In this document: in pieces, positions 3,160-63,166 of the stretch | How positions within the stretch are numbered: position 1 is the first letter of the stretch | How the letters are laid out: each line of letters opens with the position of its first letter | DNA from: Patellaria atrata CBS 101060 | Taxonomy: Eukaryota | Assembly: GCA_010093705.1 (NCBI GenBank) | Contig: MU006098.1 | Location: 634,666 to 698,665 of the forward strand | Direction: 5' to 3' | DNA: 64,000 nucleotides | Translations under genes and position numbers: made by a program | Notes under the pieces: model-generated | The model's database searches: none | Told to the model about the DNA's origin: nothing | What the model saw: only the letters and a program-made list of their open reading frames with translations

Positions 3160-3962
3160 GGAGTCGGTACGCAGTCGGTATGTTTATGACGGGGGAAGGG
3201 ATGATGCAAGTATTTCTTGATTTTCCTGGTTGACGCTTTTCGGTAGCTGTATGTTAGTTGTACTCTCTCGCACATGGGTTCGTGATTTACAAGGAAGCTC
3301 GTGTCTTAACACTTATACGATAAGTTAAGGGTGGCCTCGCAAAAACGAGGTCCGTCCCATTGGGGTGTAACGACTGCAAGGATGGTAATAAATTACTAGA
3401 AACGATAATTCCATCTTTTTACCTATCATATCAGTCAGTCCTTTGACCTACCTACTACCCATCCCCATCCCCCACCAAATTTCACATCTTACCAGGAGCC
3501 CACAATCCAGCAACCCCTTAAACACCACTCCCATAAGCCTCGCAAAAAAAAAGAAAGAAATGAAATGAAGAGCAAAAAAAGACAAAAGCAAAGAACAAAG
3601 AGCAAATAAACTACGCTAGATTCCGAACTAAGCGAGGTTACGTCACGCCGGCCCGAGCCTTCTTTCAAAATTTGGAGCTTTGGAAATGGAGCTGCCCCGA
3701 GACATTTTGCATCCGGTCACTGTGTGTATACTGTGAATATGTGAACCTGCGTATTTACAAGTACAAGAAGTCACCGACTGTTACCCTCCTCCCAGAACCA
3801 GAAACTAACAGGTCCGATACCTCATCCCTACCGGTGCAAGTCCGCCATCAATCCTCGCATAATCAATTTGGTAGAACATCACTCAACATACCCCCTCTCA
3901 TCCCCCTTTTCCCCCACAACCACAATAATCATATCTTACCCTATCCAACCCGACACGACTGA

Positions 3963-4056: not shown

Positions 4057-4636
4057 TCACCAAAGAACGCAAAACCCTCAAACCCTCAAAAGCAGCACCG
4101 AACACCGAATTCCAAGTCCCAAGCCTCAAGCTCCCCTTTCAACTATCTAAAACCGCAGGCTGAGGAATAGCGCGGTGTTTCGCACCCTATTCACCATCCA
4201 TCAGATGTTAAACCGGTAGAAAGTTATAAGGGGGTTTAATAGAGCAGCATCTCCAAGGTTCGCTATTATCGTAAACGAAAACGAGGAAAAAAAAAAATCC
4301 AGACTGATGTGTCCTCTCGTGATGTTCTCGTCCTCGTCGATTTCGACCTCTCCACGATGATGATTGCACGTTGCTTAGGGGTAACACTGCCTTGGGAACA
4401 ATACGACGCTTCCCCGGGAATGATACAGCACCGCAGCATCGAAGGTCAGGTCAGTCTCTCTATCAGACTTATCACAAGAGTAAGGGATGAATTAACTCAT
4501 ATTGTAGAGGGAAGACGAAGCGCAACACAGTCGAGGTAAAGATTTGATTCTCATAATAGCTACTTCAGTGCCCCTAAGCCGCATGGTTGAGCAGCGGCTC
4601 CTATGTTGAATACTTCATAACAAAAGAGAATCAGCA

Positions 4637-9857: not shown

Positions 9858-11382
9858 CGGGGATGCATTTTTCGGTCGCATGGGGAGTTTTTTTTTTCTT
9901 TTTTTTTGGGTTGTTCTGGGGTTGGGGGGAGGGGGGGGAAAGGTGTCTGCATGGTAGATCGGGACGGTGTATATATGGATCTTTACTCCACTATACGGTA
10001 GTGGTACGCTTTCGGGTTCGGGATGGAATGGGCTTCTTTTTTTTTTGGTTTGGGTTCGGAGTCTTGGATGGTAATTAATGGGGACCATACAGTAAGGTAG
10101 TGATAGGTTGGATACCGGGAAATAATTCAACGGCCGACATGGTCGGATGTCACTTGTTGAACCGTCGTAGGACGTTGTTTAAATCGACCGATATCTGCCA
10201 TCTGATGGCTATATCGGGTTTAGAGCGGTTCTACGGCTGGCTGCAGAGCCGAGACAATGAGGAATAAGGTAGGTACGGCAAAAGGTTTAGACCGGCTGTG
10301 CAGCCAACCTGTGTATGATACCGTAGGAATTCTATATTAGAGTTTCCTGTCACCAAGTTCAGCATTTGGCCTTTCTTACACCCGCTAACGCCTACACCGG
10401 CGCACTGGTAGTTTCCATCCGGAACCGCCTGGATACTCTTTCGGTAGTCTGAGCATTTCGTGCGGCATGATCAGTGAATAACTCCGTATAGTCCCATCAA
10501 TTCGTGTAGTATGATCAGCTAGCACAGTCTTATCGCTTCGCACTGTACTGTACATATACATTCGGTACCTTATAATCTCACCATTTCATACCGTACAGTA
10601 CAGTTATATATTTCCATATACCCAGAGTATAGATAGTATCCATGCTACTGCCAGTCTTTGCGTGCAATAAGATCTTTCCATAACATACAGATACCGCTCA
10701 GAATACGGCGAGCCCATCCCGTCCCGTCCCATCCCATACAACTAGACTAATTAATCCTCCGCTTGTGCGGTAAGTGTACTGTATAGCGAGGACATTGGGT
10801 ACTCTGCTATTGGTATAGATGGGAAAGGTAATACTTATTCGAACTGTTGCTCGTAAACCGGTTGTAGGAGCATAGAGGACACTCTGATGTACTATGAGCG
10901 GTGAGGCTACTATATGGAGGGGAATAACGACGCTTTTTTTCGCTGTAGTATGCTCAAGACTGTCTCTAAGTGCTGGAGACTGGACCCCGAAGAATCCGTC
11001 TTGTCGGCTTGGCAGATCTGTTCTTTCCTTTCATGTTTCTGGTTTCTGACCTTGGATCCAAGATAAGAGGTTTAGCCTACTCCAGACTTTGTGGAGGATA
11101 TCAAAATAGACTCTTCCCTATCCAGTATCACTCTCGTAGTTCCGAAAGCCGGGTCAAGAGATCTTTCTAGAAGGTCGTAGAGAGCAGGAGACTGGAACGC
11201 TGCGGAGTTCTATGTTCACTGTTCCAGGGAGTGCATGTTTCGGGGTAGTTCAGCAGTTCAGTAGCGTCTTAATAACCTTGGGAGATTTTCTGCGCATTGG
11301 GAGCTCGCTCCCTGACATCCTATATTATTCCCCTGTTGACCTCTTGAGTCTGAAGGGTCCTTCAAAATCTATCGCCCTCTTT

Positions 11383-24241: not shown

Positions 24242-25031
24242 AAAGCTACAAACGCTTCAAGGGTAAAAGTATGAATTGATGCATGAGAGAGAGAGAGCCA
24301 GTAGTTACCGGCTAATAACCAAGAGCAGAGGATCTTTGTCCTAGACTAGACGGAGGACTACTAGAATAACAGCACGATGGGCTATACAGAACCGAATTAT
24401 AGCCGTGCTGTCCTAATGGTACGTTGTTGCATCTTTCTCCTGATAAGCTGTTAAACCTTTCCTGGGCAGAATCGAGACTGATATCCCCAACAGATCAAAG
24501 TCTACATGGGCATAGCTGTATTTATTATACTATTTCATAACTAAAATCAGGCTTCAGAGCTTTAATTATCCACAGAGAAGTCTTAGAATCTCTAATGAAA
24601 ATTCATGCACTCATCGCTAGTTTCTCCACTAACGGATCCTCGTGTATAAACCTTCCCTCACTATGCCCTGAGAGAATACTGAGTAGAGCCTGTAATTCTA
24701 TACAATCCTCTTGACATGGCCCCTATCACGCTGGTCTCTCCAACATCCAGGCCCTTCAAGTGCGTAGTTTACACCAGTAGTAACCAGTTCCCCCATCACA
24801 TCCACAGTCTCCGTTGCATCCAACCATCTCCAAGAACGACATACATCCCGAGTCTACGCAGCAAGCTATACCTTAAACGACCAGAGTAACCACCCCATCA
24901 AACCATCTTTTCAATGCAAAAACCCCGCGAGGGGCCGTGAGTGCTCTAAATAGGGAAAGTAATAATATCACCGCGCGGAGGTATACCCATTTCTCCAAGT
25001 AAATAAAAAAAGATAAAAGGGTGCGAGAGAG

Positions 25032-25176
25032 AAAAAGAAAACCTCCGAAGAGGGAAAGTTAACCCGGCGAACGAATTTAACTTTATATTCTGGCGGAGGC
25101 GGGACTCGAACTAAGGACTTGACTGTAGGAAATTTGACTGAAAGGAAATAACCACTCGACCATTGCCGCCAGAATT
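25032..25176 (-). ncRNA. Putative Pol III-transcribed structured ncRNA of unknown family, copy 1
   Basis: Minus strand: A box TGGTCGAGTGG (25152-25162), B box GTTCGAGTCC (25102-25111), perfect 10-bp closing stem ATTCTGGCGG/CCGCCAGAAT, hairpin AAAGTTAA..TTCG..TTAACTTT, hairpin CCTC-TTCG-GAGG, then TTTTCTTTTT. Paralog at 58510. Confidence 0.7.
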
Positions 25177-27392
25177 GAAAATCCTCTCCGCTGAGGAAGA
25201 TTATGTAGAGCAGTAAGCCTCTCCCCCTTTGGCTACTTGGTTATGTGGCCAACATGAAAGCTATTTCCCCTATTGTATGATGGGTTTTTACTTAGCATAG
25301 CTCAGTCTGCATGGATCCTCTTTTGGGACCGCATCAGACATTAAGCAAGAATCAATTAATTATTTATATAGAGCAGTGTTGTTGTGACTGTTGAGTCCTC
25401 AGCACTGGGGGCTTTAAGTAAGAGTTGGGTGATGGTTTGGTCCAGTTGCGGGGATTTGGGTAAGGGAGTTTGTATCTGGTTTATGGGAATGCGGTTCTGT
25501 CACTGTAAGGTACTGTAAACGTCCGCCGCTTTAGGGTATTGAGGGCCTTGAACGGATCTGTGGGTCTCGGGTTCAGCTGGGTTTAGGGTTTGTGGGTGAG
25601 AGGGATTATGGGCATTTCAGGGGAAAAGCAGGTCATTTTCAGCACAGTCCGCTTATTCAGTACAGTTCACTCATCCAGTACAGTTCACTCAGTCAGTACG
25701 GTAGCAGTAGAAGAAACTTTCCAATGAATGGGGACGAATATCCAAGAGGAAGGCGATAGTCAACACATTATATGTTGCGCACATATTCTTTCCCTATCCG
25801 CGATGCAACATCCCCTAGGAAGCCAACTCGAGCATATCTGATTCGGGTTGTATGTACACACAGCGGGAGATGGAGATTTGAGTGACGTTATAACGAGGGA
25901 GATGGTCGGGTGAAGTACATAGTCTCCATACAGAACCCTTTGAACAGTAGAAAACTGGCCTTGACCGCGTAAGAAGCTTCAGGGACATGTTTGGAGAGAA
26001 ACAAGATCTGATAAATGATACCATGGAACTAGGGTAGATTTGAAATATGCATACAAGCACACTGAATGCATCCTAGGAGGGGGTGATAATGATGGAAAGT
26101 CCCGCCAGTCGACTTCGAAATGGTAATAAATACAGAACATATAAATGTCTAGTCAGCTCTCTGCCGTAGACTTAACTATGGAGCCACCATCCCGCTACAC
26201 CCCTAGAAGATTGACCTACCTGCCGAGACTCGTTGTAATTGCAACACTTCTTCGCTTAAACCCTCTATTGCGGTCAAGCCAAAAGCAAGCGTAAACTCTT
26301 TTGCTAATCCTAGTGCGGTTGTAGTGTGGTGGATCGCCATGAAGTGTCGTTCCACAACAGTATGTAGAATAGCATTTTCAGAGGGGTGCTATGTAGAGCC
26401 AACTCCCGAGATTGAAAGGACCGACATGGGCCTAATTCCAAATGGCGTTGCATGCGAACCAGCTCCAAAGCAGAATTCGAGGCTTCAGCGCACCTATACT
26501 TCTACACTAACAATAGCGTGATAGTTTCCTATTTTGGAAATTAACCGTGTATAATTGTTCGGGTTCGGTTCTTTTGCCGACATATAAGTGGAATATACTG
26601 CAGGATGCAGCGGGCTTGGTAGATATGCTTGCGTACCTGGATAGAGTATGTCTTTAACTACATGCCTTTTGCCGGATATTCCATATGATTTGCAAGCAGT
26701 TCAGAGAGAGTTTAGGGCAAAGGGATCGATTGCTGATAGTGTGTGGGTCGTTGAAGTATTTATGGTAGCACAACATTTAAAGGAAGGGAAGGCTACGGAC
26801 CGATTGATGATAAGATATAACTTAGCATATGCGAGACGTCGACGACATAGATGAAAGCCTACCATGTAGTCGGATAACCTTTGCGGGAATTCTAAGGTTG
26901 GTGGGAAAATCGCTCTTCCTATATCGTTGTACGAAATATCCATATCTCTGCTCAACATCGACACAGCGCGAATTATCACATTCCTAATTGAAGCCACACC
27001 TACCGCGAAGCTGGCACCAGATCCAGCGAGCGTCCCCAAATCGAGGCCTTCGCCCAGAAATCCGGAATATGCTCTTCGATTGAAATTGAAGTGATCGTAT
27101 AAACCTGCTGATCGTTCATATAGCCGCCATTTGTCATTTGCGGGGGAGACATGTACGAGACATGGGAGTTTAATCAACCAGAAAATAACCTTGCAGAACA
27201 CCAGTACGGATAACCCGGTCACTGTTCTCACCAGCCACGGTTCGAACATCATCTGGGAAATATAAATGTCGAAGGGTTGGAGAATGGAAATATTGAACTC
27301 TTACGCTTCCGCAGATTCGAAGTTCGGTGTTGAGGAGCATCTGCAAGATCCAGACACTGATAGCTGCTCTAGCGGCCTACACTCGAGGAAGG

Positions 27393-32956: not shown

Positions 32957-34889
32957 CTACTTCCCCGTCTTCTGCTTCTTCTTTGGTCTCTCGACAATCT
33001 TCTCTTCCTTCGGAGGCTTCTCCTCATCTGCATCCGCCATCTCCTCATCACTGCCTCCACTACTGACGTGATCGGAATCATACTCCTCGGCAACATCGGA
33101 CTCGGATTCGGTGTGGAAATCCTCATCTACACTTTCGTCATCCTCGTCTGCGCTGCCGCGCGTCATGACAACGTGTTCCTCTTCGCTAGATGCGAGATCA
33201 GCGTCCTCCTTGAGCGCCGCCGCAAGAAGAGCGCTCGACTGAAGTCTATTAGCATGGGTACAAGATAGATGTGCAGGAATATACTTACATCATCAGCCAT
33301 CTCATTCTTAGTCTTGAGACCCTTTGCCTCGAAGAAGTCTTCTAATGGCTTCTGCTCTTCGCGGTTAATGTTGCTAAACTGGTGCTCGCCCTGGCCATTC
33401 TTCAGCGTGACGGTGACATCAAACGTGCGACTTGCGGAGATGGCACCGCCAATACGGGAAAGCGTGACGATCTGGATGTTGTCGAAGGAAATATACGTCG
33501 CCGGTTTGGGAACGAACATGAAACTCTTGTCCAAGCAGAACAAGAGACCTTCGTTAGCTTTGATAGAGCATTTGACCCCGGATTGTTGGTGGTGACTTAG
33601 GAAGTCCTTAGATGGAGTGACAATCTTCTTGCCGGCAAGGCCACGGAATATTTGAGCTACAACGGTAGAGATCGGGCTTTCGTAGTGGGATTGTAGCTTG
33701 CCTCCATATTTTTCTAGCACCTCATCCTTCATGTTCAGATCAAGAGTAACTTCTTCATCTCGCTTGAACTGCATAACAAGGAATGGATACCTAGTCTGAC
33801 CCTGTCGTAAGGGAGGATCGAGGCCAATCGTGATGAGGATGTGGATCTCGTCCGGTTTCGGGAGTAACATAAACTTTTTGATCGACTCGTACTGGATCTT
33901 ATAGTCGTACGTTTTTCCACGTAACCGGAAAGACTTTTCGTACATATCGATGTCGAAACGTCCTCTAAGAAAGCATTAGTCGCAATTTATAGGGAAAGTG
34001 AGGGCCTACAAGCCTTGGTGTGAGATGCAACACATCCAAAAAGGTAGCATATGTGTCGCCTGCGACCTCACCGATCTCCGCCTTTTCAATAAGGGTATCA
34101 TAAAACACCTGTGCGTTTGAGGCATACAGCCCATCGGCATTTTCCGCATCTGACCCAGCATCACCGTTCTCTCCGTTCTCCTCTTTAATGGCTGTAGAGC
34201 CTGGTATGTAGAACCGCATCTCAACCAGCTGATCTCTCGCCGCTCCCGTTTTTCTTCCCTTCGCTCGAGCACCACCCAAATGCCCATTTGTACCCGTCTC
34301 ATCGCCGTTTGCAGGGTTGGAAAAATCTACCGCCACCTCGTTCTTTCCCGCCAAATTTGTATTCGATACCTCCGAGTACGGGATCGAAAACGCTGGGCGA
34401 CTCTGGACGTTAAAATGCAGCTCGGCTTTACCGAAATCTGCCTTGCCCCAGTTCCAGCCTCGCAGCGCGTGCTCTTTGTGTTCTAAATTGATCCGGTACC
34501 AGTTTTTAAAGAGTTTGCTGATGCGCTCGAAATCCTACTACTCGTTAACGTCGAAATAAGGGTGTGGAATGTGAATGTCTAACGTACCTCTTGCTGAAAA
34601 CCATCGAGTTGAACTACCGCGTTGTTCCTTGAGTAGACCTTTATTTCGTAGCCTCTCGATGCCCTACTCCACTGGGCTTGTGTGAATTCGGCGGCATCCA
34701 GAGTGAACGGGTCCCCATTTCCTAGTTTCCAGCCAAGGCCTGTCTCGACGAATCTGCATTTTCCAGGTTGCTTTGAGAGATCGAGATATATCTCATCGAA
34801 CGTCTCCCTAACGAATGATTAGAACAAAGTTGGGCGTCGGGGCTAATGCCGCCACTCTTTCTCTTGGATGGTGAAGTTTGAGCATACAT
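32957..34889 (-). CDS. POB3: FACT complex subunit Pob3 (SSRP1)
   Basis: Motifs METFDEIYLDLSKQPGKCRF, LRGWNWGK, TPRGRFDIDMY, FRLRGKTYDYKI and LDPPLRQGQTRYP, plus an acidic tail and NLS. Introns at 34808-34887, 34535-34587, 33965-34013 (GC-AG) and 33239-33288. Confidence 0.96.
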
Positions 34890-44121: not shown

Positions 44122-47100
44122 AATTGTTTTTGAAGTGGCGTTATGCAAGAGTGGGGAGTGCTTACTTGTTCTCACGCAGAGTCAGGGGCAACGGGGATAC
44201 GAAGAAATCCGAACGAAAGAGAAATGGAAAAAGGGAGGGTACGTGCACAGGACCAAATGAGTAAATGAAAAGGATGCAATGAGCAAAGCAACATGGATTC
44301 ATTGCAGTCTTGCAATTTGCAATTCATAGCAATAAGCAACCATCACGAACAGAGAGGAACTATGGAATATTGGAATATCCCACAGCACGGTCCACATTTT
44401 GCACCGAGCACGTGAAGCAAAAACCCGGGTTGGCTGTTTCTTATCCTACGGTGGCAATTATAAGGGACCTGTTCCCCTTTCAAAGACACGTTGTCCTGGG
44501 GTAGTTCACACACGTGGAGAAACGATACTCCTAGAACAGCCCTTGATGATCTTCCCAAATAGAGTTCCACTAGATTTTCCCTTCCTTCTACCGAGGAATT
44601 CTATTATTCAAGACTTTTTGGTGGTATTGTGAGCGATTTTAATCACTTAAATAGAACTATCTTGTCCTCTGGTAGGGGGAAGCGAGCACTAAGATTCCAA
44701 GATACCTGTATATTAGGAAGCTACTATTACCTGTATATTAATTAGACTTGACTACTCGTAAATGTACAAAAAGCATACTGTTGAATGATTATCCTAAGCC
44801 GGTCGTCATCATTCTCCGATTCTAGGAGTCGGATAAAGATTATTTGATGTACAGGCAAGCTCACCGGATTACTATAGGCTATCACTCATGTAGTTCCAGT
44901 TGAAATCCACAAACGCCACACGTTTAGCACGTCCTTCTGAAACTTTTCTAATGTGTTCTAGAGGCACGTGGAGGAGTACTATTTGTCGATCACGGCTTTT
45001 CCGCCCCTCAGCCTTTTTGCAGATCCGGATGTAGGAAATGTCTCGGGCGGCACAGTGCCGATCGGGTGACGACACAAGCGATCTGGGTACTGCTGTTGGT
45101 GCAGTCCAACTTGACAGGAGGATGATTTTAATTTGCTGCTTAAAAAAGTATTAGATAGCTGACGGGTGAAGAAAGGGGACGATGATGCAAGGCCCTCTTC
45201 CACATACGGAAGGTGAGCTCCATCTTGAGGCCAGAACTTCCTCGCCTACCTCCGCAACCTCTTCCACAAACAACCTTTCGTCCCTTTTTCATCACCATTA
45301 TCCCGTCATTCGTCTTCTTGTTCGATCCCTTTCTTGACTATCCAACCCTAAGGCTACATGATTTCAACTTTTTTTTTAGGGATGTAGATGCGAAATGAGG
45401 AGGCGTCAACTAGTCCTTGCACCCACCCCTTTCCACTATTCAAATTTCCTGCTGTATCCTCCCTGAATTCTGTCTTTAACCTGAACATGACCAACAGGTT
45501 TATAGTTTTTGTTAGCTCGGTTAGCGCTATTTTCAGCGCAATAGGTACTGTATAGTTTTCTTCTACCTCCCCTGTTATCCGCGCGGCGAAGAAATCAATG
45601 GCTCCCCACGTTTGACTACAACATAGGTCAGGGCAGAAACGCCGTCGTCCCCCCCAAAGCCCTCAATGCTGGGTTTCAATAACGAATGAATAGGATTTGT
45701 ATCCACTCTCCACGCTGGCATCGGACGCATCTACAAATCCATCATGGCAGCGGAACTTATTATGCAACTCTGCGACGGCCCCTATCATATACCCCTGACA
45801 TCCTGCTCCATACTGGCATGAGGATCGAAGAGAATATGTTTTGCTTGTGCTGCAATGCAACGTCTAAACGATACGTGTTGCTCTGTTGCTGTTGTTTTTG
45901 GTCAAATATTCCTTGAGCTAGTCTCAATCACCATGTCCAATATAAGGGTGCATGATGAGCTTGCGCAGTTATCGGCCCGATCAGTCCACCAGTTCCTAAT
46001 GATTGGCTCTTCGAACCAATTATACAGTTAATCAACCTCGGGTTTTCGGTTCTGAGATACTATGTCATGTTCGTAACGACGTCTATGCCTTAGAGGCATT
46101 CGCAGCGCAACCATGCCGTGCTCTTACACTACTCCTAGCAGCAGAAAAGAAACCACAGAAAGGAACGGGACGATCCCGTGTCTACCCGGTGCTGATCTAG
46201 CCCTTCCATTAGTCATGCATGGATACCTGTCATATGCAAGCCACAACACTATTCCTCTCTCTCTCCCGGCAATTGAAAATCATTCCGGCTGCTCTATGTT
46301 ATATTATCGTAAAGTAGTGTACATTTCGGCACGGAAAATTGTCCGTATTCCCCTTTCCCGACTATCTACCGTTAGAAACAATTACTAGCACTGAAATTTG
46401 ACTCAGTTAAGTGCATAGCAGAAGTGATTGAATCTCGGTTTTGGCATGTCTGGAATGCGGTACTATTTCTGGAATCCACTTTATTACCGAAGAGATACTT
46501 GCAATATTCAATTACAGGGTCTTTCACCGGAATCATGACGCTTTGTTGATGATGCTCGTCACCGCAGAAGCTAGGAGTAAAGGGAAGCACTCGAGGAGTG
46601 GAGCGAGATAGCTGTGGTCAGCATCATTGGTAAGATAACGTGCAGCAACATGACGTGCAGACGATCATCCCGTTCCGCATCCACTCTAAATCAAGCGCGC
46701 ATCTCGTTCTGGTCTAACAGGGCTAAAGGTTATCATTGATCTAGGACTTCCCCAAGCGCGCATAAACAGGGATCGTTGATCAAGTATGGCATTGAAACTT
46801 ACCATTGCTTCAAGTTAAGCAATCATCTTACCAGAGGACGAGTTTACAACTATGGCAATTGGGCGGCAACAAACTCATGAGAATAATGATCCAAAGGAAA
46901 ATTGTCACCCTGGAATTACAACTGCTGTAGGATACGTCAGAGGTACTAAACAAGCAAAGACTATTCACTGCGAGTATGTCTGGCCATCCATGTTAGATCT
47001 AACTTCTCCGGTTGTTGAAGAACTGCGTGCATAGAGTCTGCTTGCACTGCCCAAAGGAAGTTACGATCTAAACTCTCCAGCTGAACGTTATTTTTTCTGG

Positions 47101-48963
47101 TTGTCTATTTGGTTCAGTCCAGTCATTTCCTCAATCTCATAATTTCGGAAAAGCATTGTAATTTTGCACTATCCAGTCATCTCGTACGGTTTAATTGTCC
47201 TCTACAGTCTAGTAATATTGTTAAATCAGACGAGAGAGCTTCAAAATCAGTATAGGAGGGTAGTGTCTAATACTACGAAGGAAAGAGAAGGTTTACTCCC
47301 CCATACCTTTAAGGGGGACATAACTAAGTAGCTTGTACACCGAGTCTAGGAGACTAAATTTTGACATTTCGACCGGAAAACCCCTCCAAGGCTGGTTTGA
47401 ATATGAAAAATAATGTTATATGTGGACTTACCGGACCCCTTATTTTATAAGAATGCGTAGTATGGACTATTGTACACCAGTGTCATCCCCTGATTTAATC
47501 TTCGTCTTTAGCATCTGCGCAATCTGAAAGCGAGACTTTAAAGAACCGATTAAATCAATCTTCTCGCTAACTCCTCAGAACCATAAATAAACCCTGGCGT
47601 GCAAAGATGAGTGGGAGGACACCACAACTACTCCAGATTCCTTATCATACCGTATCAAGTCTAGAACCTCTAAACCTAAACATCAACAGGAAGAATATTC
47701 AAAGATCAGGATCTAACCGCGCGAGGGAAAACTAGGCGCTCATATCTAGTGCATAATTCCCCACCAAGCTACACCGCTAAGCAACCTCACCATTCTGCTC
47801 CCCATTGACTACCTTGTGTCCTCGTTCCGCCTGACCAGATCACTCTTTGAGGAGGTAGACTAAACGTAATAGATAAGGGGGTGTATGATACCACGTTCGT
47901 GGTTACAACTGCGCGAATCGTTGCGGAGCTCGCCGAGAGACGGTCGGGGGGAGGGCTTCATCCTATTTGAGCATAGGCTAGGGGCTGGGTTGTATGGCGC
48001 TATTGTTGGAGGATATCTGGGGTTGAAGATATTGATCCAGTGGGTGGGTCTGGCTTGTAGAATGCTTTTGGAGTATCGCAAGTATCGGGATCTGGTCTAC
48101 TTCGGAAATGTTGGGAATGTTTCTTCAATATTCCTTAGGAAAGCGGTATGGTTTGAATTCGAGTCTACTGTTTTCAGCGTATTATATTTCCCGGTCCATT
48201 TCCTTGTCGAGTCTTCAGAACCTTTATTAACACTTCATAACGGTTGAGATTTTATGATAAGCAGGACCCGACGAAAGCACCAGAGTATAGGCATTATACG
48301 CACAGTAAGCCAAAAGGCCGACGAGAAGGAGTGCATGCGCGTGCTACAAAATCGATGATGCACAACGGTGAGGTTCATTTCTCTGCCTAGAGTGCAACCC
48401 TTGGCCGTTGTAAACACTCTCAGGATAATGTCTCCTGAACCGTGGTATTTCCGGACCGAAGAGCTGCGGGCCGATCTGGTACTGTACAGGCTGCAATGCT
48501 GCATACGGGAGCTGTATAAAGTGAGTAACGCGTATTGAGTTAGGAATACGGGTACAGCTATGGACATTCCGTGTACGGTTGACAATTCGTACACAAAGCA
48601 TTTGACTCTATGGTCAGTAGGTAGCAAGTGTAGTAGTTGAAAGATGCCGCCGGTTTACAATTATATTGATACTTGTAGATGACTAGTAGATTTGTAAATG
48701 CTATCCGCTATGGAAGGAAATGAGCGAATCGTAAAGGAACTGGCATAATAGTTATCTAAATATGACCATACATTGGCCAGGAAGTGCTTTTAAGTTTGAA
48801 TATCAGGATTAGGGATTTATGACAGACTTTATCTACCAGACTCGGGAATGAAAACTTTCCTCGTCACGGTCATATAGATACCAGAATCTGTCCGTGTAAT
48901 TTGCTGGCAATTCTTCGGACCCTTCTTCACGGTCTCCAGAAGAAAATTCCTCGTACATATTGA

Positions 48964-50524: not shown

Positions 50525-51745
50525 TTACGTATCTTTCTTCATATACTCCAGCTTCCCGTCCTTGGTACTGAACTTCATCACAGTCGGACATCTGCGACAG
50601 TCCTCTCTAAGCCTTCCATGCTCACACCGACCCAATTCTTCACTCTCCACGCTCCTAGTTCCCCGGGCCTGTGCAGGTTCACCCTCTTTCTCCTTGACTA
50701 CGGAGGGAGTAGACGGTACAGCTGCTGCGACACGACCAGATGACACAGTTTCGTCGAGAGCCGACGTAGAGGCGGCGGCAGACTGAGCGCGCTGCGTCTT
50801 CGCTGTACGAGGAGCTGGAGGAGATTTGACCTGCACAGTCTTCGCACCCTTCCCTTTGGAACTCTTGCCTTTCTGCTGTGCGGGTGCAACGGTGGAAGCA
50901 CGGGGCTTTGCAACAGGATTTTTTATCTTCCATTGCCGTACCTCTCTTTCACATTCGCAGTCGCCATCGGTGTTGATGGCGGGCTCATCGCCCGGGAGGT
51001 CGCGAGACACGGTACCGGCTTCTGCAGACGCATACGCAGAGGTCGCGCCTGCAATTTCGCTCTGTGAAAAGCGATCCGTGTCGCCAATCTGGGGTTGCGA
51101 CCTCGCGACTTTCGTCACCCTACTGCTCTGCTCTGCGCCAGTGTCAAGTCCCCGTTTTCCGAGCGCACGGGGAGCTGGGGCGCGCTCTTCACCAGACTCT
51201 TCTTCACACTCAGATTCGGTGTCCGTTTTGTCACGATCTTCTTCGCCCTCTGTATCCCCATTCGGGTTCATGTCGCGCCATGTGAAAGTACCAGCAGAGG
51301 GACTGATAGTCGGAGATCGCTCGCGCAGGTAGCTGTTCCAGGCCCTCCATATCCGAAAAGGAGTCAACCCCATAGAACGGCCGTCACAAGCGAACTCCTC
51401 GTACGTCAATGGTTCTGGTGATGATGGTAATTCTAGAATACTGGGCGAGACTGCCGCTTCTGGCCCCGTACCGGAACCCGGGGACAAGTTGAGGGTGTGT
51501 CCCTGGTTGTCAAGGAAACTATCGATTCTGTGCTTGATAGAGCTTTGCGAACCTGGATACTGGGCTGTTGACCCTTGGTTCGATAGGGTCAACAGTGAGC
51601 CTACAGCCAGAGCCTGCTCAATAGCTGTTTCACTTTGCTGAGCACGCTTTTGTAATTCAACCGCCAAGCATAATGCCTCAAGGTTCGATTCGTCTTCGGA
51701 GGAACCTTGGGCGCTGGGGAAGGAATTCTGGAGTGTCATGTTCAT
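50525..51745 (-). CDS. Low-complexity hypothetical protein with a C-terminal CEHG-x5-CRRC motif
   Basis: Open frame of about 400 codons, first ATG at 51745 (the 5' end is uncertain). Ser/Ala/Glu-rich. Confidence 0.6.
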   Translation of the reverse strand: MNMTLQNSFPSAQGSSEDESNLEALCLAVELQKRAQQSETAIEQALAVGSLLTLSNQGSTAQYPGSQSSIKHRIDSFLDNQGHTLNLSPGSGTGPEAAVSPSILELPSSPEPLTYEEFACDGRSMGLTPFRIWRAWNSYLRERSPTISPSAGTFTWRDMNPNGDTEGEEDRDKTDTESECEEESGEERAPAPRALGKRGLDTGAEQSSRVTKVARSQPQIGDTDRFSQSEIAGATSAYASAEAGTVSRDLPGDEPAINTDGDCECEREVRQWKIKNPVAKPRASTVAPAQQKGKSSKGKGAKTVQVKSPPAPRTAKTQRAQSAAASTSALDETVSSGRVAAAVPSTPSVVKEKEGEPAQARGTRSVESEELGRCEHGRLREDCRRCPTVMKFSTKDGKLEYMKKDT

Positions 51746-56368: not shown

Positions 56369-56823
56369 ACAGGGCGATGTGAAGAGACTATTTGATCAAT
56401 CATGGATTAACGAGTATACCAAAAGCTTTATACCATCTTGATGATATTAAAGCAAGTGCGTTGAATGGTACAGCAGTGGAAGATATCTGCTTCGGTCCGT
56501 CAATAGGCAACAGGCGTTGGGTGTCGACATCTTCCAATTTGGAAGGTACATGTAAATAGGTACACTTATAACCTTTTTTTGGCGTACAGTCTGATACGAT
56601 ACCACACTTGTAGGAACATCTAGTCCTAACGGAGTCTTTTCCTACCTTTTTCACTTTAAGACCATTACTCGCCTACTGTAAGGGACTTTCGGGTCATAAA
56701 GTTCATACAACAAACCGTATGTGAGGCTTATCTGTACTGATGGAAAGTTTTTTGATACTTCGGGATCAACAGCCTGCCAGTAGTAGTTCAAGAAGCGTAC
56801 TTCATCCTGAGCAAATAGCTCAG

Positions 56824-58122
56824 TCATTTCTTTTCATCGCCTTCTCCGCCATCCACTCGAGCATCTTTACCATCACTTTCCCCTCTCCGCCTCTTCCTGA
56901 GGCCCTTCACCACTGCATCCGTCACATCCTCAACCGTCCTACCCATCTTCCTCTCTCCTGTCTTCTCAGCCCCTAATACGGTATCCTTCGTCACCGTCTC
57001 GTAAACCTTCGCCATATTCTCAAACACCCTTTCCTCCTCCCATCCCGCGCCCTCAAACGTCCTCCCGATCTCGCTCATTTCATCTACCCAGCGATAGGCC
57101 TTCGGCGGCATTCCTACCAGCGATCTCTCCACAGACTCTAGAAGCTTAGGCGTGTAGGCGTGAAGCTCCGATTGCAGAGCGGGGAGAACCTGCAAGGAGT
57201 GCGCAGTGCTAAAGGATTGGATGGCCAAGGCGGTGAGACCCTTGGTGAGAGATGCAAAGCACGACTTTAGACCGCTAGCCGTGCCAATGGAGGGGCATAG
57301 GTGGTACGTGTTGAGAACTACGGCAAGCTCAGAGCCATTCATAGGGGCGGAGGATAGGGGATAAGGGCCGGAAAGGGGTACAGAGGGGCGGGTCCATGCT
57401 TCCGTATTGCTTGAAGAAGCACTGTCAGGCCTCAAACTCGGTGGTGCACCGATGATGCCACCGTCGATTAAGCGGATGGGAAGGTCAGAGAAGCGGTCTG
57501 CGATCGAGTTGATGGTGCGAGGGGAAGTGGCGTTGAGATCGAGGTAGTACAGGGGCTCGTTCGATGTGCGAGGTGTGCGGAGGTTACTGTAAGCGGCCAC
57601 TATTCGTTCAGCTGTTGCAATCGCATCGCGCGGTGGCACGATGGAAAGGATGTAGTCGGAGCGGGTGACCAGTTCGGCATCGGTGGGAACGAGGGTGATC
57701 GATGCGGAAGCGGCGCGGTCTGCGGTGTATCGACTGCAGGTTGTGTTAGAAGGATATTTTCATCGTATGCGAGATATCTTCCCCTTCCCGTTATTCCTCT
57801 CTCACTGCTCACCCTCACGCGAGTCTCCAGCTGTCGTGTACGATGGATCTAAAACGTATGGATGACTTGAAACTGCGCATATAACATGGTCGTACACACA
57901 TCGATGATCGGTTGTGCAGACTGAGGAACTCCAACTTTAATCAAGGGGTGATATGTACGGTACTTCGGAAATTTGAAGAAAAGATGGATGGCTGTACTGT
58001 ACCTACCTTCTACCAGTGACATTTGTCAAGACATTATAATCATGAGCTCTAAGTAGCTTTGCTATCCCAAGACCCATCTCACCAACGGAGAGGATTGATA
58101 TAGTTGCTTTCGATACAGCCAT
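56824..58122 (-). CDS. 6-phosphogluconate dehydrogenase-like NAD(P)-binding protein (DUF1932-type C-terminus)
   Basis: Rossmann start ILSVGEMGLGIA. Motifs YYLDLNATSP, IDGGIIGAPP, ASGLKSCFASLTKG and MPPKAYRWVDEM. One 273-nt intron at 57734-58006. Confidence 0.88.
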
Positions 58123-58509
58123 AGTATGTGTACAAACTTAGAAGATGGTGATTCTGGTGGGGCTGGTTGTCTCAGGCCACGTGTGTGACGATGTCACAGA
58201 TTATCATTTCCTACTTTCCCTTATTAGTAGTAGTCGCGCCGAGGTTCTACCGCTACGTGCTTGATACTAGTAGATCGCGCGACTATAACTTCTTCTTTCC
58301 TTAACTTAATCTCTTTACACTGTAGTTAGGTTATACTAGTTGCAATCCAATTCGATTCTCTACAACCGCTACGCCGTCACAACGTGCATGCTAGCTAGTG
58401 CTTTCAAAATACATAGTTCTACCCATCTATACGTAAAGTTAGATATCCCAAGGGAGAAACTGCCACAACAATACTGGCGTACATAATGGATTTCAGCAGG
58501 TGAACTTTC

Positions 58510-58675
58510 AATTCTGGGGGCAATGGCTGACTGGTGACATTTTCTTTGCCATATTTCTTTCAGTCAATTTCTTACCAGTTAAATTTCCAAGTCTTCAGTT
58601 CGAGCCTCGCGTCCGCCAGAATATAAAGTTAAATGCGTTCGCCGGTTTAACTTTTCTCTTCGGAGGCTTTCTTTT
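58510..58675 (+). ncRNA. Putative Pol III-transcribed structured ncRNA of unknown family, copy 2
   Basis: A box TGGCTGACTGG (58524-58534), B box GTTCGAGCC (58598-58606), closing stem ATTCTGGGGG/CCGCCAGAAT, hairpin AAAGTTAAAT..TTCG..GTTTAACTTT, hairpin TCTC-TTCG-GAGG, then T-tracts. Colinear with the reverse complement of 25032-25176. Confidence 0.68.
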
Positions 58676-59542
58676 GCATTTCTCCCCCCCCGGCCCTTTA
58701 CCTTCTTTTATTTATTATCATCTCAATCCATGCGTGTTGATCAACTTATCTTGTTTCCTAGTGCTGTACTGTACAACCGCTACTCTCTCAGCTTACACCA
58801 ACAAGCAAATTCGAACCTAAGAACAAGATCAAAAATGTTGCCTGGAGTCTGGAGAAACTCAGTAAAACAGACCGTGCGGTATCGGCATACCGTCGTTCTA
58901 GTTCCAAGCCGGCACTGCCGGAATCCGGCTCGCTAGAACTAGGTCTAAAGTTGAACTATACCCTAGTTCTTAGGTCACCTTGCATGTTTTTCAACAAAAT
59001 TATCAACAAACCGGTACTCGGGACTTTAGACTATATAGTTCTGCTAGGTAGTTCCATACTTTCCATCCGTTCCTCTGCGGTAAAAGGGAAAATCATAGTT
59101 CGAATTACCAGTGCGTTCCCCATATCACCAATTTTCTTCTATTCTCCCATTTCTACCTTTATACCTCCAACATAGCGAAAAATTCCCATTTGAGGGCTCA
59201 TTAGATTCAAAGTGAGTTTCATTCTTTCCTAATAATTGTGATTAGTGACCTTAAGACCTCCCCGATGGAGCATTCTGCATTTTATTGAGGTTCCGCGCTC
59301 AGTCTCAAAGGAATCTCCAACTTTTCTGTACAGGAGAGATTAATACGTTCAAAGATTTTCCAACTGCGCAGTGGACTCACCGTATGGATCTGCTAACTGT
59401 ACGGTCGCCTTGAGCGGGTCTCCAACATTCCTGGATCAAAACAACGACAATATACGAGGGACGCACAAGCGTAACTCAACAGAGTTATTCGAATAGCGTA
59501 TAGAGGCAAAGGAACGCGAATATTCCAGTACAGAATATAGCT

Positions 59543-61136
59543 ATGCTTTCTATTTATGCTCTTAGTATCCCCGAAATTCTCTCTTGCATTTTCGAGCAAG
59601 TACTGCAGATCACATCTCCAGATCAATCCTAGCCTAGTACTGCGATTACATTCAGGTCACAGTCTCATCCTATCTTAAACTGTGCACTGGTCAATAAATT
59701 ATGGTCTCAAGAAGCGCTCAGAGTTCTTTCGAGCCTGAATACATCTCTACCAGGAAGTAAATTGATACCCTTGGACAATATCGAAAGCTACCAGAAATTA
59801 GCGAGGAGAATTCGACGATTGAATATTTTAGACCCGGAAGATTTCTCTACGAAACTCACTTTCGATGTGAGAAGCCTTGACCTTCCTCTATTGACCTGCC
59901 TCGGGTTCCATCTGAAACTAGTCAAAGATGATGCCAACATGCGAGCGTTCATATCGTGGCTATCACGAGTTGGTACCAACATCACCGAGTTAAAATTTTG
60001 GAACGACCTTCTACCTATAAGTCTCAACCGTCCTCCTACACTAAAACATGTTCTTAATCACATTCCTGGGAGCTGTCCACGGCTAGAGACCTTGCGAGTC
60101 CCGAATGAAGCTGAAGTAAACATCGAACAATTTCGGGATTTCTTTTCTGAGGCTCATTATCTCAAATGCATTTCAATCGGAGACTATCCCATTGCGGAGC
60201 CAATTCTTACAGCTTTAACCCTCCAGAGGCGAACTGAACCCAACTATCTATCATGTCCACTATGTCTAGCCTTCCCCTATTCGACCTCGGCTTCAATCCC
60301 TCCCTGGACATACTCTTCAATAATATTGTTAACCTTTTAATCACCTGCAATAATTACACATTTACCCTAATGTCTTCGTATCTATCTAATCTTCAGTATC
60401 TTACTTTTCACCTCCTTCAGGCCCGATATAACTCCCTTGGCCGTCTGTTCTCCCATTTGACCCACTTACGTCGTTTACAAACCCTCACCTTATCCTGTGC
60501 ACGCGCGTACTGACCCAGAGGTCATTCTTAGTGATTCCAATCTTTTCAGCTTAACGAAGCTCAACAATTTGCGTGTCCTCTCCATTAAATCTGCTTATAT
60601 TGTCCGTATAGCCTTTATCTCAGTCGACATGTGCGACGCGCACCTTAATTCCCTAGCATCGGAGCTTCCTAATCTCAATGCGTTGGAACTTCCCCCCGAG
60701 GTAACAATTCCTAAGTTAAGTAATGACACACTTTTAAGCTTAAGCAGGGGTTGAGAGACTGCGAATCAAAAGCAACTTTGATCTTCTTTTCTTGCCTCTC
60801 GATCAGCCATGTCTTTTCCCCAAGCTGATACAAATTTGCATTCAACCCTTCGTCAGCAACTACCGGGAAAATCCCGTCCGAAATGTTATAGATGTACTAA
60901 ACCACCACTTCGCGCGGGTTAGAGTGTTAGAACTCTGGGAACCGGATCGCAGGACTAAATGTTCGGTTCCAGGGAGGGCATTCGAACCCCCTTGGACGAG
61001 GACACTCGTTGAGGAACTATTTGTGCCATTTTCAGGTCGAAAAAATGAAACGAAGAATATATCAGCGATGCGTAACTCACCATCGTATGGCGTCTTCAGG
61101 TATGCTCCGCGCGTAGCAGATGTGAGCAGAGCTTGA
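59543..61136 (+). pseudogene. F-box plus leucine-rich-repeat (RNI-like) pseudogene
   Basis: F-box IPEILSCIFEQV..LNCALVNKLWSQEALRVL has an in-frame TAG at 59630. LRR-like segments (CPRLETLRV, LRRLQTLTL, LNNLRVLSI, LPNLNALEL) are spread over three frame switches with no plausible introns. Confidence 0.75.
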
Positions 61137-62499
61137 AAGGAGAATATAACGAGGGAAGGTGTTGACAGAGCGATATCTCCTCCTATGTCATTGTTAGCAT
61201 TCTTCGGCCTTCGTCAAGGTTACAGTTTATGTTCTGGTCCGCTGTCAGTTTCAAAGTATTCATAAGCACTCAATTACCGGGGCGGTTAGAGCCACTTATG
61301 TGGGTTTCACTATCTCGATTGAGTAAAGTCGATGATTCTCGGGACATCGGGCATATAGCATCTGAAGAATGTCAGATTAGGGAGTAGATATATAACAGAT
61401 TCTGCCAGTCACGAGTATTCAAGTCCGCATGAGAGGAGGAACGAGTTAGATAAATTGCAAGAAGTTCAATATACGTTAAAGCGGCCAAACTTTTGTATCA
61501 CCTATCACCTGTTGATGTTAACCGACATACTTCCGTATTAGAGAAATACAACTTCTTTCGGCTACTTGAGTCATACTATCTCATTATAATGGCTTTTAAG
61601 AATTGTCCGAAGAGGTTTTTCTTGCGCAAGTTTCCAATGACTATTCCGAGCAGTTGGTTTCGTCAAAAGTAGTTCCTCATAAGACCCTAACGTACCTAAT
61701 AAGGGCTAGATTGAGTTTCGAATGGAATTTCAATTACACTACAGCGTTTGACTAGTAACTTTACAACCCATATGGAGCTGGAGGCTGCACTCCAGAAGAG
61801 GATAGTTGCGTAGATTTACCGATGACCTTACGGAATCGGCCTCACCGTGTCAACAATATTGCACCGCTAAAGCAGCCACGTAAGGAACTGATTCGACAAC
61901 CTTCCATATCCCTGTGTGGTGATTGAGAGATGCCCGATTCTGGAATTGATATCAAAAGCAGGATACGTCATATAGGCTTTTGTTCGTAAATCTGTTATCC
62001 CTACGCATCCAACTTCCTTTTTGCAATATTCTTGATTATAAATCTAAATGCGAAATGCCGACTGTAGTATTCTTTGTGGTCCTTGACACTAGAGTATTGA
62101 TTCTTGGGACACACCCTAATTAATGTTTCAAGTTAGAAGTTCGGGTTACTGCTCCCTTGTCCATCTCTAATGAAAATTTCCTTTCCTTCCACCGGACACC
62201 GGGAATAATGCGTGAGAACGAACGAGTTTCCCTACCGTCGTTTTACAAACGAAAAGGGCGTAAGTAAATAGGCCTAAATAGCTAATACCCGGTGAATAAA
62301 AGAGCTTTAAGGGACTGTTATTTTAATACCTCCTCCTTACTACATTAACACCCCTCTCTAAAAAGGGGAGGAGACTAACCTAAAGGGGTAGTCAAATAAA
62401 GTATACCTTATATACCTACCCTCTGGTAGGAGGACGCCTTCCATTTTAATATAGATCTTAACGCTTCATCTTCATCTATAGCGGTAGCTTAAATTCATG

Positions 62500-62640
62500 C
62501 TCAGATTCGTACTCAGATTCGTACTCAGATTCGTACTCAGATTTGTGCTTTGATTCGTGGTTAGATACGGCTTTAGATTCGTAAGGTGCTTAGACACATC
62601 TCCAGATACGGCATCAGATACGGCATGGATTCGTGCTTAT
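62500..62640. repeat. Degenerate 12-bp tandem repeat (CTCAGATTCGTA)
   Basis: Three perfect units and one near-perfect unit at 62500-62547, with decayed units to ~62640. Confidence 0.8.
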
Positions 62641-63166
62641 ATAGAAGAATTTAACGGACTTTATTAGTTAAGTTTCAGAGTAGATAATACTTCATAAACG
62701 ACAGCCAATTATAACCTTAATCGTGCAGTCATATTATGAATTCTACACTGGGCTATGTATAGATCTTAGATACCTGCATTACTAAGGTACAACTTGTTCA
62801 GTAATCGAAACTCCCATGCTTTGAAGATACCCCTGATCATCGTGCGGTAAAAGTCTTCCAGATTGGGATTCAATGACTAAGGATGTCAAAGGGCGTACCT
62901 AAAGTTATCAGAAACTTAACAGAACCTCATGATGATTGTCAAAGACAGTCAAAGCGCATAGGTGTATTATTTGTAATAACTCGGTCGAAAGAGAACTCGA
63001 AAGAGCGAGAAATGGAGCGGATAAAAGATAAACTGAGGAGGCCATCCCACTACCAATATTCTCAACAGATAACTTAAACTCTAAGACGACAACAACAACA
63101 CGTTGATTCAGATTCTCAAACACTCTCAACTAACACTCGAACATCACATAATTCTCGAATTCCAAA

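Follow-up and report, generated by a model that had tools for sequence, protein, structure and literature searches.

A second, diverged copy of a multi-copy element with a Pol III-type layout in Patellaria atrata

Two related segments in the genome of Patellaria atrata CBS 101060 have the appearance of Pol III transcription units. Both lie in a 64,000-nucleotide stretch of contig MU006098.1 (assembly GCA_010093705.1, positions 634,666 to 698,665), which we analyzed as a whole and refer to as the window. The second of them, copy 2, raises the question of whether it is a small-RNA gene whose promoter and fold are held in place by purifying selection, as an earlier reading of the letters had proposed, or a member of a repeat family that is on its way to decay.

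Layout of the two copies

Copy 2 (58472-58714, plus strand) is homologous to copy 1 (25215-25000, minus strand), with a blastn identity of 72.8% over 246 aligned positions (E 1e-30), and the pair is the sole repeat found inside the window. Global alignment of the two yielded 250 columns, made up of 182 identical columns, 27 substitutions, and 41 gap columns. Identity varied along the element, amounting to 27/40 columns in the upstream flank, 24/28 in the 5' stem and A box, 34/64 in the middle, 11/14 in the B box, and 34/47 in the tail; the 3' domain is given in Table 1. The identical block reported by the sequence-only reading proved to be 23 nt long and exact, occurring twice in the window at 58612-58634 (+) and 25075-25097 (-), with none expected in 100 shuffles. 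That reading had taken copy 2 for a diverged second copy with the layout of a Pol III-type unit, and this is borne out by the homology together with the arrangement of parts in both copies.

Table 1 Features of the element in the window, with alignment identity where a single feature was scored.
Feature	Position	Strand	Description	Columns identical to copy 1
Copy 1	25000..25215	(-)	upstream box, A box, B box, 3' domain, T-rich tail	
Upstream TATA-like box TACTGnnnTACATAAT	58472..58487	(+)	~25-35 nt 5' of the predicted start	
Conserved 5' block	58506..58522	(+)	predicted start region and 5' strand of the closing stem (58511-58520)	
A-box-like motif TGGCTGACTGG	58524..58534	(+)	1 mismatch to TRGYNNARTGG	
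Variable central part	58536..58596	(+)	pyrimidine-rich, degenerate ~15-nt units; 24 nt longer than in copy 1	
B-box-like motif AGTTCGAGCCT	58597..58607	(+)	2 mismatches to GGTTCGANNCC	
Conserved 3' domain	58612..58667	(+)	3' strand of the closing stem, linker, hairpin 1, hairpin 2	52/57
Hairpin 1	58625-58654	(+)	in the conserved 3' domain	
UUCG hairpin 2	58655-58666	(+)	in the conserved 3' domain	
T-rich tail	58668..58714	(+)	T3CT4 (58668-58675) and T4 (58706-58709); homology with copy 1 stops here	

The 16-nt upstream box of both copies stands 20-35 nt 5' of the conserved 5' block, and TACTGnnnTACATAAT is common to copy 1 (25215-25200), where it has the same offset from that block. Its local score has a P of 0.059, a value that does not yet allow for the matching position, and we suggest that TACTGnnnTACATAAT would work as a TATA box. 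The conserved 5' block has 20 of 21 bases the same as in copy 1, and its 10-bp closing stem pairs 58511-58520 with 58613-58622, interrupted by the one G-G mismatch (58518/58615) that had already been read from the sequence.

The A-box and the 11-nt B-box (GGTTCGANNCC) consensus motifs are general knowledge. Copy 1 has no mismatch to the former (TRGYNNARTGG, 25162-25152) and one to the latter (25112-25102), while the B box of copy 2 departs from its consensus at two of nine fixed positions. The earlier statement that the boxes of the two copies differ at degenerate positions only is partly right. It fails at A-box position 15, a purine (R) in the consensus but C in copy 2, and at 58607, the base just past the B-box motif as that reading delimited it, where the consensus is C and copy 2 has T.

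Between the boxes the loop is indeed longer in copy 2, its central part having been extended by insertions of 16 and 8 nt. TRF resolved the middle of copy 1 into a 15-nt tandem unit present twice (25119-25149 (-)); in copy 2 the same program called no tandem repeat, and that reading was rejected, though by eye three to four degenerate units can be made out. The ~15-nt pyrimidine-rich units of both middles (25119-25149 (-) and 58536-58596 (+)) end in CAGTCAA-like words, and the length difference between the copies looks like a gain or loss of such units.

In the 3' domain the stem AAAGTTAA/TTAACTTT (58625-58632 / 58647-58654) and its loop are retained, and the opening pair of the last hairpin, at 58655, is a U-G wobble in copy 2 in place of C-G, both as previously described. 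The tail is homologous between the copies (P 0.005). The first of its T-runs reads T3CT4 in copy 2 and T4CT5 in copy 1, in keeping with the weaker terminator noted before, and copy 2 has no run of at least five T in its tail whereas copy 1 has T5 and T7. We take the tail T-runs as putative terminators. A TATA-like box, an A box, a B box, and a T-run are thus all recognizable as candidate signals in copy 1, and in copy 2 with a weaker B box and T4 runs only.

Box-like words are a poor guide by themselves: 91 A-box-like words were found in the window against 79 expected and 12 B-box-like words against 13.4, and ~0.5 A-plus-B pairs are expected per window by chance. Because such words are this common by chance, what argues for a Pol III unit is the full set of parts recurring in two homologous copies. 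Both have the TATA-like box, the 10-bp closing stem just outside the boxes, a tRNA-type spacing from T-loop to stem, and T-runs downstream. The relation of the head to a tRNA is read from this layout only.

The differences between the copies carry a strand bias. Read on the sense strand, each of the 16 transitions is C/T, with no A/G among them (P ~8e-4 given 64% pyrimidine sites), a small sample from a pyrimidine-rich region. At tRNA loci, transcription-associated mutation is described as leaving the non-template strand with an excess of C-to-T changes (PMC6130373). The C/T-only transitions would fit non-template-strand mutation of a transcribed unit and, together with the TATA-like box at a fixed offset, hint at transcription of the sense strand, possibly in the past.

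Several identities were considered and rejected. ARAGORN called no tRNA gene in the window with or without introns, and none of its six calls at a relaxed threshold fell on either copy. Those six long-intron calls (971-1151, 3326-3462, 4083-4152, 10266-10379, 34593-34731, and 50995-51114) are absent at default settings and are probably false positives. The Rfam tRNA model gave no match at its gathering score, nor up to E 10 on either copy, and no Rfam family reached its gathering score. Up to E 10, copy 1 had only a weak, sub-threshold match to Vault RNA (RF00006), which scored 18.1 bits where the gathering score is 34 (E 0.23); copy 2 had no Vault RNA match at E up to 10 and nothing relevant in Rfam. 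Both copies lie in stop-free frames. A coding reading was nonetheless discarded, as protein likeness extends over 27 residues, away from the best-conserved DNA, and the indels are not multiples of three. A helix joining the A-box and B-box regions was not counted, the best fold of each copy placing it in a different register.

Copy number and surroundings

Contigs from two sequencing runs revealed more copies than the window holds. These runs (X1 and X2) come from one sample, probably the source DNA of the assembly, and are not independent; their contigs were placed on 56800-60400 at 80% likeness. Single-copy contig depth was 321 in X1 and 443 in X2. Summed contig depth, which by the warning of the tool itself is not the same as copy number, reached 2580 and 3432, respectively, in the bin 58494-58614 and 7540 and 6184 in the bin 58615-58735. 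Over the element it thus ranges from ~8 to 24 times single copy, with the top values (24 and 13 times) in the bin of the 3' domain, and by the same measure the 3' part is present in more copies than the 5' part.

The contigs differ from copy 2 and from one another. At 58607 seven contigs of each run carry C in place of the T of copy 2, with a summed depth ~13 times single copy, and at least seven other contig variants span the B box. At 58594 and 58596 the letters of copy 1 occur in two to three contigs. Other copies have the long middle too, since short contigs that are 89% alike cover 58559-58637 without a gap; one contig links 58522 to 58612 without giving the middle. Several other copies diverge after 58654, with hairpin 2 shorter or broken. 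Given several distinct contig variants, and notwithstanding the caveats on depth, the element belongs to a family with some dozen copies or more, best conserved in its 3' domain. The sequence-only reading, with two copies in view, missed this family.

Copy 2 has a second repeat for a neighbor. A ~180-bp sequence of very high copy number (58200-58379) ends 93 nt upstream of it, with a summed contig depth of 22,000-92,000 (single copy 321/443), contig breaks at 58212 and 58379, and an internal inverted repeat (58226-58239 / 58277-58290). It lies in the sole strongly RIP-like kilobase nearby (composite index +0.22) and may be a MITE or part of a larger element. Elsewhere, RIP-like patches of a single kilobase occur at 10001-11000, 47001-48000, and 62001-63000 (composite index +0.17 to +0.32), and the window is otherwise ordinary at 43-50% GC. 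It is nuclear DNA of a filamentous fungus of ascomycete-like type, and Pfam domains in its open frames are Zn(2)-Cys(6), fungal transcription-factor, EPL1, SSRP1, DUF3431, and BBE.

Searches beyond the window returned no relatives in collections that were not built for fungi, so that their blanks are uninformative on this point. A 20-mer from the conserved block had no hits in metagenomes, and there were none in prokaryote genome contigs or in viral contigs. A gapped pattern of the 5' block and B box matched 114 metagenome loci, none of them alike past the 14-24 nt anchor, and these were set aside as chance hits; they gave 84 blastn rows with a best score of 33.7 bits, and 7 of these loci overlap tRNA-His genes. 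The literature yielded no account of a fungal element of this kind, which is not proof of its absence. To our knowledge, few Pol III transcripts of filamentous fungi are known besides tRNA, 5S, U6, 7SL, and RNase P/MRP RNAs, and the fungal SINEs that we know of are few and poorly defined.

Divergence and selection on copy 2

Copy 2 had been interpreted as being under purifying selection on promoter and fold, as opposed to neutral or RIP decay. The second half of that interpretation stands with respect to RIP, which we rejected as the source of the differences: of the 16 C/T differences just one falls within a CpA, and G/A differences are absent. The first half, selection on the promoter and fold of this copy, is poorly supported. 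Shuffling of alignment columns gave P 0.03 for the longest identical run of 23 and P 0.006 for the best 57-column window with 52 identical columns. This excess identity of the 3' domain is a weak sign of selection because it comes mostly from indel columns elsewhere, and substitutions are 4/56 in the 3' domain against 23/153 in the remainder (one-sided P 0.10).

Folding points in the same direction. A structural comparison of the two copies with RNAalifold, of the kind the sequence-only reading had called for, recovered 34 pairs, one of which changed on both sides (58635/58646, U-G to G-U). At that pair, however, the best fold of each copy taken singly adopts another inner register. Fold energies were not clearly better than those of shuffled sequences (z -0.7 to -1.8). 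Four changes in copy 2 go in the direction of decay, namely the closing-stem mismatch, the C at A-box position 15, the T at 58607 against the family majority, and the lack of a T5 run. From these comparisons the evidence for selection acting on copy 2 appears thin, and structure-preserving evolution of this copy is not established.

Origin and spread of the family

We consider it about an even chance that copy 2 is a diverged, somewhat weakened member of a dispersed, tRNA-derived family of Pol III-type repeats that spread in the manner of a SINE, a family that we assume to be restricted to the lineage. Homology, layout, and the multi-copy state are observed; Pol III transcription and the mode of spread we infer from them. 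TFIIIC would bind the A and B boxes and set TFIIIB on the TATA-like box, Pol III would initiate near 58508-58512 and terminate at the T-runs, and the product would be an RNA roughly 160-200 nt long. If, as seems most likely to us, the family spread like a SINE, the strong conservation of the 3' domain would be a family-wide property, due to common descent or to the needs of the spreading machinery, and not the result of selection on copy 2.

A SINE-like history is favored by the dispersed copies, by the combination of a boxed head with an unrelated tail, by the decayed members, by the 3' part being commoner than the 5' part, and by the neighboring ~180-bp repeat of very high copy number with its RIP-like surroundings. 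Against a classical SINE, the sense strand ends in a T-rich tail that is neither A-rich nor a simple repeat, and ~38 nt 5' of the predicted start, including the TATA-like box, are common to both copies. This shared upstream sequence counts against a SINE because a retroposed Pol III transcript should not carry it. Target-site duplications can be lost from old copies. In the flanks examined at copy 1 there was no direct repeat of at least 6 nt, and at copy 2 there was only one 8-mer pair, CTAGTGCT (58395/58758), with ~0.2 expected by chance. A 22-nt direct repeat, 82% alike, also flanks copy 2 (58358-58379 / 58769-58790); it and the CTAGTGCT pair follow a different order on the two sides of the copy, and these pairs may be chance. 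Since three defining features of SINEs were tested and the element displayed none of them, we do not file it as a SINE.

The closest known systems each share part of the arrangement. tRNA-derived SINEs, including fungal low-copy ones such as AfuSINE2 of Aspergillus fumigatus (PMC5063351), are alike in short length, low copy number, a head with A and B boxes, a non-tRNA part after the head, and indels and decay among copies. The lengths given there for fungal SINEs are 140-493 bp and their target-site duplications are 4-14 bp (PMC5063351), of which none at the present element is convincing. Relative to SINEs of the AfuSINE2 type, the Patellaria element differs in its T-rich tail, its head without a tRNA score, and the upstream sequence common to its copies.

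Dispersed families of Pol III genes with an upstream TATA are known from fission yeast and, as 5S rRNA genes, from Neurospora. The fission-yeast Pol III genes and Neurospora 5S rRNA genes resemble the element in a TATA ~30 nt upstream, internal boxes, and T-run terminators, and also in having many dispersed copies of which some are decayed. In contrast to these, the predicted RNA of the element matches no known family and copy 2 has no T5. Vault RNA (RF00006) has similarly paired 5' and 3' ends, internal A and B boxes, and a variable middle, and copy 1 aligns to it end to end; the element adds a 3' domain of two hairpins, and we know of no vaults in fungi. The ETC sites and tRNA-gene relics of budding yeast are likewise degenerate tRNA-like loci that keep a B-box-like sequence. 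Unlike ETC sites, the element keeps a whole gene-like unit in many copies, and the B box of copy 2 is off at 2/9 positions.

The main competitor to a SINE-like repeat is a functional family of small-RNA genes, in which Pol III paralogues would encode a structured RNA of ~150-170 nt, with copy 2 expressed and promoter, stem, and hairpins under selection. We hold this to be possible, if only tentatively. It has in its favor that the repeated unit coincides with a whole gene unit (TATA-like box at a fixed offset, body, and T-rich tail), that the 23-nt block is exact and the 3' domain far better preserved than the middle (52/57 against 34/64), that target-site duplications were not found, and that the C/T-only transitions suit a transcribed strand. 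Moreover, the 3' domain has four substitutions, and two of them face one another where the loop of hairpin 1 begins, turning U-G into G-U. The comparison nevertheless consists of two sequences, too few for covariation, and a substitution density with P 0.10 is not significantly lower in the 3' domain. The fold z-scores of -0.7 to -1.8, the shortened or broken hairpin 2 of other copies, the lack of an Rfam match, and the state of copy 2 itself, with its worse B box, changed A-box consensus, mismatched stem, and missing T5, also speak against it. A more specific version, in which copies 1 and 2 are expressed paralogues of an undescribed functional Pol III small RNA of filamentous ascomycetes, with a tRNA-descended head, a conserved two-hairpin tail, and a BC1- or vault-like origin, and in which the C/T changes are a scar of heavy transcription, strikes us as rather doubtful.

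That the element is inert is a view encouraged by the box-like words being at chance level, with ~0.5 chance A-plus-B pair per window, by the unremarkable fold energies, and by the position of a multi-copy element next to another high-copy repeat. The copies would then be pieces of a mobile element that is larger or of DNA type, such as a MITE-like one to which the 10-bp inverted repeat belongs, with leftover or chance boxes and no Pol III transcription. The inverted repeat is not terminal, however, since homology runs on for ~38 nt before it and ~90 nt beyond it. Both copies combine the box order, the closing-stem spacing, the tRNA-type distance from T-loop to stem, the TATA-like box, and the T-runs, and the transition bias is strand-specific. 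We therefore regard an inert repeat as improbable. Still further down the scale, and in our estimation very improbable indeed, is a chromatin barrier, in which both loci would serve mainly to divide gene-rich from decayed DNA through bound TFIIIC, with or without an RNA product. B-box-bearing loci can act as barriers in yeasts, and to the right of copy 2 there are ~4.5 kb without a recognized gene, including the RIP-like patch at 62001-63000 and a frame without relatives. The latter (59633-60340 (+), 235 aa, stop-free) matched no Pfam family, had no relative in a search of proteins 129-412 residues long, and is probably not a conserved gene. However, genes resume at 63152 with one of epimerase type, so that the gene-poor flank is modest. 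GC is 0.43-0.46 around both copies, with no large AT-rich block and only small RIP-like patches. The two loci also have no common setting, copy 1 lying between convergent and copy 2 between divergent open frames, and copies numbering a dozen or more would not have to mark borders.

On present evidence, the element is most likely an ordinary low-copy repeat. As a family whose units run complete from promoter to terminator, with a 3' domain that is strongly conserved, it is a possible marker of Pol III promoter rules in these fungi, which would combine an upstream TATA with internal boxes, and if it is expressed, the family would be a candidate new small RNA.
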